A DNA stretch of 64,000 nucleotides from Chitinophagaceae bacterium (GCA_043788995.1 JAYWII010000121.1:15361-79360), one strand, 5' to 3'. Shown: positions 45,060-62,366, counted from the first letter of the stretch. A program made the numbers and translations. Notes: a model not told the origin generated them from the sequence alone.

Positions 45060-45740
45060 ATGAGTACTGTTAAAAAAGTTTTAATTGCAGATGATGAGCC
45101 AGATATCCTGGAGATAATTCAGTTTAACCTGCAGACTGAAGGCTACGAAGTGATCACTGCAAAGAATGGTGATGAAGCCCTTGAACTGGCTAAAAAACAC
45201 CAGCCCAATTTGATTATCTTAGATGTGATGATGCCTTATAAAAATGGCATCGAGGTTTGTAACATCCTTCGCTCTCAGCCGGCCTTTAAAGATACATTGA
45301 TCATTTTTCTTTCAGCATTGAGCGATGAAAGCACGGAGGTTCGTGGACTGGAAACAGGAGCAGATGATTATTTAACCAAACCCATCAGCCCGAAAATTTT
45401 AGTAAGTAAGGTGAACGCATTGTTCAGGCGGTTGAACAACAAACAGGGCGGCGATGTAATCAATATTGGCGACCTTGCCATTGACAGGGAAAAATATATT
45501 ATCCGCTACAAAGGCGGTGACATCATTCTTGCAAGAAAAGAATTTGAACTACTGGCACTGCTGGCATCCAAACCCAATAAAGTTTTTCTACGCAACGAAA
45601 TATTAAACCAGGTTTGGGGAACAGAAGTAATTGTTGGAGACCGCACCATTGATGTACATATCAGGAAAATAAGACAGAAATTAAATTTAGACTGCATTAC
45701 CACCGTAAAAGGAGTGGGCTATAAATTTGAAATGCAGTAA
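45060..45740 (+). CDS. OmpR/PhoB family response regulator (PhoB-like)
   Basis: DDEPDI, LDVMMP, GADDYLTKP, RTIDVHIRKIRQK, TVKGVGYKF. Confidence 0.92.
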   Translation: MSTVKKVLIADDEPDILEIIQFNLQTEGYEVITAKNGDEALELAKKHQPNLIILDVMMPYKNGIEVCNILRSQPAFKDTLIIFLSALSDESTEVRGLETGADDYLTKPISPKILVSKVNALFRRLNNKQGGDVINIGDLAIDREKYIIRYKGGDIILARKEFELLALLASKPNKVFLRNEILNQVWGTEVIVGDRTIDVHIRKIRQKLNLDCITTVKGVGYKFEMQ

Positions 45741-45811: not shown

Positions 45812-46861
45812 ATGTTTTCAGCAAAGAATTTATCTCCACAGCAATTATCTGCTTTTACAGCAGGCATTATTGCAGCACCAGTAAGCCTGGGTATTTATTT
45901 TTTAAAACCTGTTTGGTGGGTGGCCCTTACTGCATTTGTTATCATCTTCCTTGGTGCTTACGGCCTGGTGCTTTTTATGGTGCAGCAATTTATTTACAGG
46001 AAAATAAAATTGATCTATAAACTCATCTCTCAAACAAAAGCAAGTAAACGGGAAGAGTTCTATTATAAAAATATCCTGCCCCAAAAAAGTATGGATGAAG
46101 TAAGAGCAGATGTGGAAGACTGGGCAAGACAAAAGAAAGCTGAGATAGAAATCTTACAACAGAACGAAGCATACCGCAAAGAGTTTTTGCAAAATTTATC
46201 TCATGAATTAAAGACACCCATTTTTGCTATACAGGGTTATGTAGATACATTATTGAATGGTGCGTTGGAAAACCCGAATGTGAACCGTAAGTTTTTAAAC
46301 AGCACTTCAAGAAACATCGACAGGTTAGTAAATTTAGCCGATGACCTGGATGAGATCTCAAGACTGGAAGGCGGTGAGCAAAAGTTACTGATAGAAAACT
46401 TTGTAATACAGGAATTGATAAAAGATGTGTATGAATCACTGGCGATAAAAGCGGATGAAAAACAAATAAAGCTCACCATTAAAAAAGGCTGTGAAGTTCC
46501 ATTAACGGTAAATGCGGATAAAGAAAAAATGAGGCAGGTATTTATTAACCTGGTGGACAATGCTATTAAATATGGCAAGCAACACGGTGTAATTGAAGCC
46601 AGTATTTATAAGATAGACAGTAAAAGAATATTAGTAGAGATTACGGATGATGGGATGGGTATTGCGGAAGAACACCTGGGAAGAATTTTTGAACGTTTTT
46701 ACAGAACAGATGCTGCCCGGAGTAGAAAAATTGGAGGCAGTGGTCTGGGGCTTGCGATTTGTAAACACATTATAGAGGCACACGGACAAACGATGCATGT
46801 ACGCAGCGCCATTGACGTAGGAACCACTTTTGGTTTTACATTAGACAGCAGGAAAGAATAA
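45812..46861 (+). CDS. Sensor histidine kinase (PhoR-like)
   Basis: Two TM helices, H-box LSHELKTP, NAIKY, DDGMGI, GGSGLGL. Confidence 0.92.
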   Translation: MFSAKNLSPQQLSAFTAGIIAAPVSLGIYFLKPVWWVALTAFVIIFLGAYGLVLFMVQQFIYRKIKLIYKLISQTKASKREEFYYKNILPQKSMDEVRADVEDWARQKKAEIEILQQNEAYRKEFLQNLSHELKTPIFAIQGYVDTLLNGALENPNVNRKFLNSTSRNIDRLVNLADDLDEISRLEGGEQKLLIENFVIQELIKDVYESLAIKADEKQIKLTIKKGCEVPLTVNADKEKMRQVFINLVDNAIKYGKQHGVIEASIYKIDSKRILVEITDDGMGIAEEHLGRIFERFYRTDAARSRKIGGSGLGLAICKHIIEAHGQTMHVRSAIDVGTTFGFTLDSRKE

Positions 46862-48785: not shown

Positions 48786-48853
48786 TTAATACAATTATTC
48801 ATGTTTTGTTAACAGCCAGTTCATATTAAAGAAACATAGCTATTTGAACTTTG
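48786..48853 (+). promoter_or_regulatory. Candidate Pho-box-like array plus -7 box
   Basis: TTCATG(48798), TTAACA(48809), TTCATA(48820), GAAACA(48831) at 11-bp period, 9-nt gap, GAACTTTG(48846). Confidence 0.5.
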
Positions 48854-48868
48854 ATTTAAACTCTACCA

Positions 48869-60209: not shown

Positions 60210-60614
60210 TCATTCCTTTATTTGAAGTAATAGTTTTTTTGCTTCCCGGGATAATTGAGAAGCATTGCTTATCCCTTTGAATGAAAAAGTAAACTGGCTG
60301 CAGTCATCACTATTCATCCTGAAATAAATATCCTGTATCACCATATCGGTTTTAAAAAAATGAATTGATCCATCATAGCCGCAGTTAATTTTTTCTTTGG
60401 TAATATCATCTGCAATAAAACTGCTCAACTGGTTCAGTGTATTTTTATCTTTTATCATCTTAACCAGTACCACCGTATCCATACTGCCATCGCCTTTAAA
60501 ATAATTAATAGCAACACTGTCGGCAAGAACCAACCGTTCTTTCAGTTCTTTATTATTGTGCTTACAGGAAAAAAATAAAGCCGTTGCAAAAATGATTATC
60601 AGTGTTGTTCTCAT
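60210..60614 (-). CDS. Small hypothetical lipoprotein
   Basis: ATG at 60614 gives the signal MRTTLIIIFATALFFSC. Confidence 0.7.
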   Translation of the reverse strand: MRTTLIIIFATALFFSCKHNNKELKERLVLADSVAINYFKGDGSMDTVVLVKMIKDKNTLNQLSSFIADDITKEKINCGYDGSIHFFKTDMVIQDIYFRMNSDDCSQFTFSFKGISNASQLSREAKKLLLQIKE

Positions 60615-60640
60615 ATGATAAAGATAAAAGTAAAGGGCAT

Positions 60641-60752
60641 AAAAAAACCACCCAATATGATTAAAAGGTGGTACAAGCATGAGATTTACTAATTGCTTAA
60701 GGAACTTGTTTGTATTGCTATAACTTAACCGATTGCCTTGTTTTACTTGATG
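60641..60752 (-). ncRNA. Candidate ~110-nt small RNA or regulatory leader
   Basis: Lies between a -7-like box (GAAATTGCA from 60762) with an upstream 11-bp-period array and an ACCACC/GGTGGT+T6 terminator at 60672-60641. Confidence 0.4.
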
Positions 60753-60755
60753 CTG

Positions 60756-60810
60756 CAATTTCAAATTGTTTTGTTACTGAAACATTAATTACAGATTAAG
60801 GTTATGTTAT
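60756..60810 (-). promoter_or_regulatory. Candidate Pho-box-like array plus -7-like box
   Basis: ATAACA, TTAATC, TTAATG, GTAACA at exact 11-bp period, 9-nt gap, GAAATTG. Confidence 0.55.
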
Positions 60811-60863
60811 CAAGAGCTGGTGATCACAGATAATGTTACTGAAAAAAGTATTTCGGCATCAAT

Positions 60864-60917: not shown

Positions 60918-62324
60918 TTAAAATTTTGTCCATATTTTCCACCAGGTATCGCCTACTGCACATGCACCTTTGTAAGTAACCGGAGTAAATCCTGTTGCAA
61001 GTTTTGGATGTGTGAAAGCACCACCTGTTACTGCTACCGAAGCTGCAGTTGGATTAAAGTCAGGGGCTGTATAATTAAATGGAGCTGTTAGACCCACTTC
61101 AGTGTTATTGGTAAGGATACTGTTACCATAATCTGCAGTATTGAACCATTCTGTAATAGTAGCAGTGGTATTTGCCGTAAGCGGAGCGTTTGTATTAGAA
61201 CCTAAGCTGTACAACACCGGCGTAGCACTGCCTGCGATAATATTGTTTTGTACAAACAGGGAACCAGGGATATTATTATCAGTTGGAACACCTTTGGTAG
61301 CATCAATATATAAACCATTTGGATAACCCATGATGATGGAATTAAAAAGAGACAGGCTTGAATTTCTCCTGATCTGTGCACCCCATACAAATAAATTATT
61401 TCCTCTATTAGCCAATGTTTCTCTCGGTCCCATTACGGTCATGTTAGAAAAGATTGCTGCAGTTTGCGGCAATAAAGCACTACCGTTTGCATCATTATCA
61501 CTTTCAAATGCTTCACTTTTAGAAATATCAGCAACAGATGAATCTCTTAAAGAAATACCAAACTGTACTTTACCAACAAAACCATTATCTGTATCAAAAT
61601 CATCATCCAAAGTTCGGAAAGAGATAAGGTGGGTACAATTTACAGTACCGCCAAACCATTCAAAAGAATCATCATTGGCGTAAGATACCTGCACATAATC
61701 GACAATTGTTTTGTTACCCACACCACCAAATGTTAAACCATTAATTTCTTTATCTGGTAAAAAAGCAAAGCCTGCATATTCAATACGAACATACCTTAAG
61801 ATACCACTGTTATCAGCAGGATTTTGTGCCTGTGTTGCAGGTGTACCATATAAACCCAATCCATCACTGTTGTTGATACCGCCTTCAATTTCCCCTATAC
61901 CCTGTACTCCATTAAAAGATGAATTAGCAGGAGCATTACCTAATACTACCAAACCAGCCCAATCACCACGCTGAGGGGTAGCCGCTTCTGATGTAAATAC
62001 AATTGGTTTTTCGGCAGTAGCATCAGCAATAATTTTACAGCTTCTTGTAATAATCAGTCCGCCATTTTTACCAGCTTCACCTACTATTTTAGTGCCTGGT
62101 TCTATCGTAAGAATGGCACCATTAGTTACATAAACCAATCCACGTAATTTATAAACATAATCTGCCTTCAGGGTCCTGTTAGCTGTTATACGTCCTTCCA
62201 GGATCGTGTTTTCTGTTTCACCTGTTGGTGGAGTTGTTGTACTGCCATTATCATCCACCACAATTTTGCGGCAACTGGTAAACAGGGCAGCGAATAATAC
62301 ACCGTAAATAAATAACTTTTTCAT
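60918..62324 (-). CDS. Surface lipoprotein with probable right-handed beta-helix
   Basis: Lipobox LFTSC; SGILRYVRIEYAG, NGLTFGGVG, DDSFEWFGG, DDDFDTDNG. Confidence 0.75.
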   Translation of the reverse strand: MKKLFIYGVLFAALFTSCRKIVVDDNGSTTTPPTGETENTILEGRITANRTLKADYVYKLRGLVYVTNGAILTIEPGTKIVGEAGKNGGLIITRSCKIIADATAEKPIVFTSEAATPQRGDWAGLVVLGNAPANSSFNGVQGIGEIEGGINNSDGLGLYGTPATQAQNPADNSGILRYVRIEYAGFAFLPDKEINGLTFGGVGNKTIVDYVQVSYANDDSFEWFGGTVNCTHLISFRTLDDDFDTDNGFVGKVQFGISLRDSSVADISKSEAFESDNDANGSALLPQTAAIFSNMTVMGPRETLANRGNNLFVWGAQIRRNSSLSLFNSIIMGYPNGLYIDATKGVPTDNNIPGSLFVQNNIIAGSATPVLYSLGSNTNAPLTANTTATITEWFNTADYGNSILTNNTEVGLTAPFNYTAPDFNPTAASVAVTGGAFTHPKLATGFTPVTYKGACAVGDTWWKIWTKF

Positions 62325-62366
62325 GCTTGTATTTTTTGTTGTTTGTTGTTTTTAATTGAATTATTA

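Follow-up and report, generated by a model that had tools for sequence, protein, structure and literature searches.

A conserved small RNA gene with a Pho-box-like promoter in Ferruginibacter, and the dnaA leader as its candidate target

Introduction

The coupling of replication to phosphorus in bacteria is poorly understood, and the small RNAs (sRNAs) of Bacteroidota beyond the gut genera are almost uncharted. Both subjects are touched by a gap between two lipoprotein genes in a 64,000-nucleotide stretch of DNA from a Chitinophagaceae bacterium (GCA_043788995.1 JAYWII010000121.1:15361-79360; this whole stretch is called the window, and positions without a contig name are counted from its first letter). 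The organism belongs to Ferruginibacter, a genus of freshwater and soil Bacteroidota. On the minus strand, the gap separates an operon encoding a TonB-dependent receptor and a 468-aa lipoprotein from the gene of a 134-aa lipoprotein. A sequence-only reading had proposed that it holds a phosphate-starvation sRNA of about 110 nt, transcribed as a stand-alone unit, and had offered an attenuator leader of the 134-aa gene as the alternative. Is this gap an sRNA gene or a cis element of its neighbours, what would drive its transcription, and on which mRNA would the product act? The analysis described here indicates that the gap very probably encodes a real, independent sRNA gene, links its promoter to those of phosphorus-related genes, and brings forward the leader of dnaA as a candidate target, which raises the interest of the locus beyond what the sequence-only reading could have known.

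Results

The gap contains a conserved RNA core

The minus-strand elements listed by the sequence-only reading (the terminator of the upstream operon, four hexamers, a -7-like box, some 110 nt, a hairpin followed by a T-run and a separate -7 box for the next gene) were all found where it had placed them (Table 1). A DNA search in relatives picked out a single segment, 60611-60721. We built a covariance model, R1, from five sequences of the core (60640-60723) and found matches in 92 of the 151 genomes assigned to the same genus in GTDB (Ferruginibacter, Chitinophagaceae), mostly as a single copy and occasionally with a weaker tandem copy. The true frequency in the genus must exceed 61%, because one genome with a diverged copy (L208) had been scored as lacking the RNA. 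A family-wide scan of 250 genomes gave weak R1 matches in only three genera beyond the window's own, one of them directly following a gene whose C-terminus resembles that of the 468-aa lipoprotein. Lack of conservation, which the sequence-only reading had held would speak against its sRNA, was not what we saw: dozens of related genomes share both the layout of the promoter and the RNA core.

Evidence for a conserved structure comes from the intrinsic terminator. Among 35 distinct sequences its stem shows changes on both sides in six of the seven pairs, with 98% of cells paired, and the observed covariation was reached by none of 500 shuffles; covariation in relatives, which had been suggested as a check, thus takes the form of compensatory changes in this stem. 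The hairpin (60672-60647) had been overlooked by a simple terminator scan because its loop of 12-14 nt is longer than the limit of 8 used there. Upstream of the terminator, conservation is at the level of sequence and concerns AUAGCAAU, the near-invariant UUCCUUAAGCAA and CAUGCUUGUACC, to which the UAUUCUUA-like loop of the terminator is added. When the gap and the transcript were folded and compared with shuffled sequence, no excess stability was detected (z about +0.6), so that overall structure is not the signal here; the only robust structure in the gap is the terminator hairpin. A UAAGCA/UGCUUG helix of 4-6 bp suggested by RNAalifold was left uncertain, since it is nearly invariant, shows almost no covariation and is broken without compensation in several sequences.

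Searching the whole window against Rfam 15 gave no match at gathering thresholds, and at permissive E-values the best sub-threshold match on the core was Yfr10 (21.9 bits, against 43 required; E = 1). The Rfam search that had been recommended therefore links the RNA to no described family; it is a new family of a known kind. From the promoter geometry and the terminator, the 5' end of the transcript would fall at about 60748-60751 and its 3' end within the U-run at 60647-60641.

A second R1 match in the window's own genome (C77:26152-26236, 34 bits) was discarded, as it has no seed and resembles an ordinary terminator. Separately, we noticed in five loci a weaker RNA-like copy 150-230 nt from the main one (L019:1268-1351, L012:1331-1410, L023:1643-1749, L028:1731-1799 and L016:1732-1811). 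The copy in L019 retains the TTCCTTTAGCAA box, while the others retain little beyond the terminator.

Table 1. Features of the gap and of associated genes and promoters, in window coordinates
Feature	Position	Strand	Sequence or basis
Terminator of the upstream TonB-receptor/468-aa lipoprotein operon	60891-60867	minus	AAAAGCAGCC-TTC-GGGCTGCTTTT + T-run; 11-bp stem, 3-nt loop; terminator scan
Four direct hexamers, exact 11-bp period	60810-60772	minus	ATAACA 60810-60805, TTAATC 60799-60794, TTAATG 60788-60783, GTAACA 60777-60772
Weak -7-like box	60762-60755	minus	GAAATTGC; 9-nt spacer after last hexamer
Predicted sRNA, ~110 nt	60750-60641	minus	promoter geometry + terminator
Core, 84 nt, basis of covariance model R1	60723-60640	minus	102.6 bits at own locus
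Conserved 5' motif	60721-60714	minus	AUAGCAAU; alignments; similar AUAGCAA recurs within the RNA in most relatives
Seed box	60704-60691	minus	UUCCUUAAGCAAUU, containing near-invariant UUCCUUAAGCAA; invariant alignment columns; complementary to dnaA -16..-3
Conserved box	60681-60674	minus	CAUGCUUG; may pair weakly with AGCA of the seed
sRNA intrinsic terminator	60672-60641	minus	stem ACCACCU/GGGUGGU (60672-60647), 12-nt loop with conserved UAUUCUUA-like sequence, seven U to 60641
Separate -7 box of the next gene	60626-60619	minus	TATCTTTA; 4 nt before ATG at 60614
134-aa lipoprotein gene, no family match, usual downstream neighbour	60614-60210	minus	open reading frame + lipobox; synteny
468-aa lipoprotein gene, no family match, usual upstream neighbour	62324-60918	minus	open reading frame; synteny
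TonB-dependent receptor, C-terminal 543 of 935 aa	63998-62367	minus	Pfam PF13715 + PF07715 + PF14905; promoter past window end
Phosphonate-locus susC promoter	59507-59441	minus	five phased TTAACA-like hexamers, 9 nt, perfect TAGTTTTG; read directly from sequence
PlcP-like phosphoesterase promoter	48798-48859	plus	same array, 9-nt spacer and -7 box geometry
PhoB-like response regulator	45060-45740	plus	top NCBIfam matches are PhoB models
PhoR/PnpS-like histidine kinase	45812-46861	plus	candidate activator pair with regulator at 45060

A separate transcription unit or a cis element

The hexamer array, the 9-nt spacer and the -7-like box were detected as motifs upstream of the RNA core in 33-36 of 53 distinct loci. 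The shared layout consists of four hexamers of the RTAAC(A/C) or TTAATA type with an 11-bp period, 9 nt, and a box with conserved A..TTGC; a position-specific profile of the relatives likewise shows A-n-n-T-T-G-C conserved at the fixed 9-nt spacing. The box is followed by a variable stretch and stands 44-54 nt before the seed. About one third of the homologous RNAs differ upstream, however, and this counts against the model proposed below: they have two to three hexamers further off, or none at all where the RNA directly follows a stop codon. The latter is the case in L032/L047, L043, L095 and L208, in which the core lies directly 3' of the stop codon of the 468-aa gene and lacks hexamers, suggesting that the RNA family switches between a promoter of its own and a 3' untranslated region (3'UTR) arrangement.

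On one strand, receptor, 468-aa lipoprotein, RNA and 134-aa lipoprotein often follow one another in this order, which raises the alternative of a cis-acting element: a leader or attenuator for the 134-aa gene, or a 3'UTR or terminator module of the operon upstream. The loci without a promoter of their own would suit the second form. For the first, the ATG at 60680, which the sequence-only reading had seen running through the hairpin into the next gene, is indeed in frame with the 134-aa gene in the window, but of 27 distinct loci only 5 keep this sole candidate frame both in phase and open, and insertions and deletions occur throughout the relatives, so that no open reading frame (ORF) and no leader peptide is conserved. 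Moreover, in most loci the 134-aa gene has a TATCTTT(A/G) -7 box of its own at a fixed 4-5 nt from its ATG, from which its mRNA is probably leaderless or nearly so. The spacer between the RNA terminator and this gene varies from 14 to 254 nt and contains unrelated inserts, and within the flanking DNA examined many loci carry the RNA with no 134-aa gene downstream, so that there is no obligate gene for a leader to control. Nor did we find support for an alternative antiterminator structure. As for a plain terminator module, it would need neither an invariant single-stranded box of 12 nt nor co-variation with dnaA (see below), and the 3'UTR-type copies also fit an sRNA that is made from the operon's 3' end as well. 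We consider the cis explanation highly improbable, and the leader alternative was not borne out. With a conserved promoter, core and intrinsic terminator and no conserved ORF, the stand-alone transcription unit originally described stands.

Enterobacterial CpxQ and SroC are 3'UTR-derived sRNAs. The Ferruginibacter loci resemble them where the core comes right after the 468-aa stop codon and one terminator serves both, whereas most genomes, this one among them, place a dedicated promoter for the RNA beyond a terminator that belongs to the operon.

In L060 and L012, an inverted-repeat insert of about 150 nt (CAAATTGTCGC ... GCGACAATTTGAAAT) separates the RNA terminator from the 134-aa gene. It is similar to repetitive extragenic palindromes (REP) or miniature transposable elements and accounts for the longest of these spacers.

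A Pho-box-like array at the predicted promoter

The promoter of the sRNA is distinctive in its genome. With a 62-nt promoter profile it scored 54.6 bits, against a genome mean of -62 (standard deviation 14), and was the top of 12.5 million positions; the next sites were the promoter of the adjacent 935-aa TonB receptor (31.0) and, in third place, that of a PlcP-like gene (19.2). In a scan with the hexamers alone, only the sRNA and TonB-receptor promoters exceeded the reversed-sequence control. The receptor promoter lies about 1.2 kb past the right end of the window (C121:80545-80628, minus strand) and has the strongest such array in the genome, with six phased hexamers (TTAACA, GTAACA, TTAACA, GTAATC, TTCACA, GTAACA), 9 nt and TCTCTTTG. 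Orthologous receptor promoters from 10 loci keep 4-6 hexamers, the 9 nt and TCTCTTTGCA, while unrelated receptors have none of this. The -7-like box of the sRNA, GAAATTGC, agrees poorly with the Bacteroidota TAnnTTTG consensus, as might be expected of an activator-dependent promoter. An extra GTAACA hexamer, 4 nt off the 11-bp phase, is found upstream of the array at 60834-60839 (minus strand).

Arrays of the same geometry precede the PlcP-like phosphoesterase gene and the susC gene of a phosphonate locus (Table 1). Measured against gene upstream regions, the arrays of PlcP-like promoters exceed the 99th percentile in 6 of the 9 loci where the gene has its own promoter, the window included, and in most genomes the RNA and the PlcP-like gene are 2-20 kb apart. 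We observed that in distant relatives (L225-L236), whose PlcP-like proteins are 55-66% identical, a small conserved ORF (MKNI...), apparently for a membrane-bound product, comes before the PlcP-like gene, which is therefore probably second in its operon, with the promoter further upstream.

Such arrays are well known from phosphate regulons. Bacillus subtilis PhoP recognizes repeated TT(A/T/C)ACA hexamers with a spacing of about 11 bp, and the consensus found here, (R/T)TAACA, is close to TTAACA. The Pho box of Escherichia coli consists of two 11-bp direct repeats (PMC9306846). As in these PhoB and PhoP boxes, the head-to-tail repeats of 11-bp period abut a weak core promoter and replace the upstream promoter element; the differences are that the core promoter here is of the Bacteroidota -7 type and that the regulator, though PhoB-like, scores below curated cut-offs. 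The array may thus be regarded as a Pho-box-like candidate site for an activator of the OmpR/PhoB type.

A candidate for this activator is encoded nearby. The response regulator at 45060, next to a PhoR/PnpS-like kinase, is the genome's best match to PhoB models (209-229 bits; with the Bacteroidetes PhoB model it scores 209 and the next regulator 177). One island thus holds the sRNA, the receptor operon, the PlcP-like gene, the phosphonate susC and, about 15 kb from the sRNA, the PhoB-like regulator. A similar set is found in Flavobacterium johnsoniae, where low phosphate strongly induces Fjoh_0545. This gene precedes that of a lipoprotein without a Pfam family (Fjoh_0546) and adjoins phoBR, with a glycosyltransferase beside it and PlcP elsewhere in that genome (PMC8115612). 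The window's receptor shares its Pfam make-up (PF07715, PF13715, PF14905) with Fjoh_0545 and is likewise followed by a lipoprotein without a family, and the window clusters phoBR-like genes, a glycosyltransferase and PlcP; the likeness is one of Pfam make-up and gene set, and no sRNA has been reported at the Fjoh_0545/0546 locus.

Several observations weigh against a phosphate box. Beyond the two strongest sites, the array scores overlap those of the controls. The regulator at 45060 falls below the curated PhoB cut-offs (270-296). Any OmpR-family regulator would fit direct repeats with an 11-bp period, which are a general feature of that family. Finally, a search for PstB in the window's own genome, whose assembly is rated 100% complete, gave a best score of 158.6 against a cut-off of 343.2 bits, so that the usual Pho marker operon, which could have anchored the regulon, is missing. 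All four also count in favour of an alternative in which the sRNA is real but its array is read by an OmpR-family regulator that answers another signal, such as the substrate of the TonB receptor or envelope stress. This explanation leaves aside that the same geometry stands before PlcP-like and phosphonate genes, that the receptor/lipoprotein pair resembles the low-phosphate-induced pair adjoining phoBR in F. johnsoniae, and that the best PhoB-like pair of the genome lies clustered with all of them; we judge it distinctly unlikely. The high-affinity Pst phosphate transporter seems to be missing from the genome, and its absence may explain a reliance on uptake of the TonB/SusC type.

Control of the sRNA by a Pho system is, in our estimate, probable: the circumstantial support is good, although it does not amount to proof. 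The name of phosphate-starvation RNA given by the sequence-only reading accordingly finds support in silico, through an array common to phosphorus-related promoters; the RNA would be induced at low phosphate, presumably by the PhoB-like protein. We found no published Pho box for Chitinophagaceae, and for practical use the motif can be written as (R/T)TAACA repeated every 11 bp, with 9 nt between the last repeat and the -7 box. With it, the phosphate regulon could be mapped in this family, whose members are abundant in lakes, soils and wastewater and which here lacks a canonical Pst.

The dnaA leader as a candidate target

We searched the window's own genome for perfect 11-nt complements to the RNA's conserved part. 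The sequence AAUUGCUUAAGGAA, at -16..-3 of a 478-aa gene located outside the window (C111:63805-63818), is complementary over all 14 nt to the most conserved box of the RNA. This gene is plainly dnaA, whose product starts chromosome replication. When a 21-nt seed was ranked against the region -35..+12 of 4970 crude gene starts, dnaA came first of the 4970 with -20.6 kcal/mol (mean -5.4, standard deviation 2.4). The targets first suggested, the pit/DUF47 and susC leaders, do not appear among the 15 best start regions. Two further attempts were less informative. An 11-nt perfect complement between the RNA's UCAUGCUUGUA and the start of the 468-aa lipoprotein gene (62321-62331, minus strand) was rejected as a target because it is not retained in 27 orthologous loci, and a scan of all start regions with 53-nt duplexes gave long, loop-ridden duplexes that are not interpretable.

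We then compared the RNAs and the dnaA leaders of 51 genomes. In the leaders the position of ATATAAATTGCTTAAGGAATA-ATG is fixed. Cognate RNA/leader pairs have a mean of -14.5 kcal/mol versus -13.5 for non-cognate pairs, a result that none of 50,000 permutations equalled, while a mock site at -60..-34 gave a mean of -5.8 kcal/mol and no cognate advantage. Three kinds of reciprocal change were found. First, G013 has an A>U substitution in the RNA together with U>A in the leader, so that UUCCUU[U]AGCAA faces UGCU[A]AAGGA. Second, five genomes have a matched 1-nt deletion in both partners (2x2 table 5/1/1/44, Fisher p = 1.5e-5), and three genomes with the deletion (G117, G077, G119) keep perfect pairing over 13 bp. 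Third, a C3>U change in the RNA is accompanied by G10>A in the leader, turning C:G into U:A, in four genomes (4/9/0/22, p = 0.014), with six genomes at the U.G intermediate.

The case for dnaA is nevertheless open to a number of objections. Twenty shuffled seeds gave best scores from -15.0 to -20.3 kcal/mol; none reaches -20.6, but in a single genome the match is only marginally significant. The permutation and Fisher tests ignore phylogeny, so that they represent only about three independent events. Uncompensated mismatches occur in about a dozen genomes, for example A7>U in dnaA in five. G006 and G017, in which no RNA was detected, keep a perfect dnaA box, which must then be conserved for reasons of its own; over the genomes the box has 10.5 of 12 matches where the RNA is present versus 8.7 where it is absent, a suggestive difference only, as some calls of absence are false (G016). 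In addition, ATAAATTGC in the dnaA leader resembles the weak -7 boxes of the genus, and with this as the sole promoter of dnaA the mRNA would lack most of the site; pairing presupposes that the leader is transcribed across the site, as we assume.

The sRNA could therefore be real and driven by a phosphate box while its match to dnaA is fortuitous or secondary, its true targets being other mRNAs, or its action passing through a protein. The scores of the shuffled seeds, the uncompensated mismatches and the boxes kept in genomes without the RNA all allow for this, and pairing with dnaA leaves AUAGCAAU, CAUGCUUGUACC and the UAUUCUUA loop, which are also conserved, unexplained. Against this, the 12 nucleotides best conserved in the RNA have their match in a site beside the start codon of dnaA that is itself conserved and fixed in position, reciprocal changes of three kinds, one of them a matched deletion, are seen, and cognate pairs outdo every permutation when the mock site shows nothing. 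We regard a fortuitous or secondary match as rather unlikely.

A different account takes the shared 12-mer as a DNA site: one protein would bind TTGCTTAAGGAA, which has a palindromic CTTAAG core, both at dnaA and in the gap, and the sites would change together with the protein. The 6-bp palindrome and the persistence of the box at dnaA even where no RNA was detected would suit such a protein. We know of no candidate for it, though, and the box in the gap lies in a one-strand unit with a conserved promoter and a covarying terminator. A passage from C3:G10 to U3:A10 by way of U.G intermediates is expected of RNA pairing and not of a DNA site. This account appears to us extremely improbable. Taking the sequence comparisons together, our judgement comes down in favour of dnaA as a true target of the sRNA, with a good deal of room for doubt.

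Discussion

A proposed circuit

The observations can be assembled into a model in which a trans-acting, Pho-induced sRNA would block dnaA translation under phosphate starvation. An OmpR/PhoB-type regulator, most likely the PhoB-like protein at 45060, would bind the four head-to-tail hexamers in place of a -33 element. On exhaustion of phosphate it would recruit polymerase to the intrinsically weak -7 promoter, alongside the adjacent TonB-receptor/lipoprotein operon. Transcription would end at the sRNA's own intrinsic terminator and yield an RNA of about 110 nt with a largely unpaired seed, whose UUCCUUAAGCAA would pair with the dnaA mRNA at -16..-3, cover the landing site of the ribosome and block 30S binding. 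Pairing would in this way repress dnaA translation, and with less DnaA during phosphate starvation, new rounds of DNA synthesis, which are costly in phosphorus, would not be begun. Bacteroidota mRNAs are described as having no Shine-Dalgarno sequences (PMC6847099, PMC7797042). As a whole, we hold this model by a narrow preference.

In its most general form the model would say more. In Ferruginibacter, which seems to be without Pst and, in a phylum not known to have Hfq or ProQ, without classical sRNA chaperones, a phosphate regulator would directly induce an sRNA that occludes the start of dnaA and halts replication initiation post-transcriptionally; RNA and target would have co-evolved, and the RNA would alternate between a promoter of its own and the 3' end of a phosphorus-uptake operon. 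This fuller statement we put forward tentatively, with less confidence than doubt. Either version offers a concrete, testable circuit of three short sequences, namely the regulator site, the sRNA and the dnaA leader. Should the link to dnaA fail, a new and widely conserved sRNA family with a defined promoter remains.

Comparison with known systems

The nearest described analogue appears to be EcpR1 of Sinorhizobium meliloti, described as a stress-induced, trans-encoded sRNA that has two stem-loops and pairs with the mRNAs of dnaA and gcrA to repress them (PMC4414408). Both RNAs would tie replication initiation to nutrient status through pairing with dnaA, a resemblance of function. EcpR1 differs in being alphaproteobacterial and part of a stringent-response regulon and in having no sequence likeness to the present RNA, which belongs to Bacteroidota and has a promoter of the Pho-box type. 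No EcpR1-like family was found above threshold in the window or in the sub-threshold Rfam list for the gap.

In Bacillus subtilis, an antisense RNA over the dnaA 5' untranslated region lowers DnaA production (PMC12112137). That RNA is cis-encoded and fully complementary, whereas the one described here is encoded elsewhere and would pair through a short seed only.

Within the same phylum, the sRNAs of gut Bacteroides and Segatella (among them GibS, MasB and SrcF, with the RNA-binding protein RbpB) are short, have intrinsic terminators and a promoter of the -7 type, and pair near the start codons of mRNAs devoid of Shine-Dalgarno sequences (PMC11697453; 10.1101/2024.04.05.588293). The present RNA matches none of them in sequence or through Rfam, and it differs in its order (Chitinophagales), its regulon and its proposed target. 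On sRNAs in Chitinophagaceae our literature search turned up no paper.

A possible second phosphorus island

Contig C18 of the same genome (about 1.9-63 kb) may hold a second phosphorus island, with array scores that lie within the control range. Its genes include one, preceded by a phased-hexamer array (C18:45233), for a 475-aa paralogue of the 468-aa lipoprotein, and others for a further OmpR-type regulator (C18:62372), a 373-aa protein of the alkaline-phosphatase superfamily (C18:1939) and a 2093-aa choice-of-anchor-I/Calx-beta protein (C18:6111).

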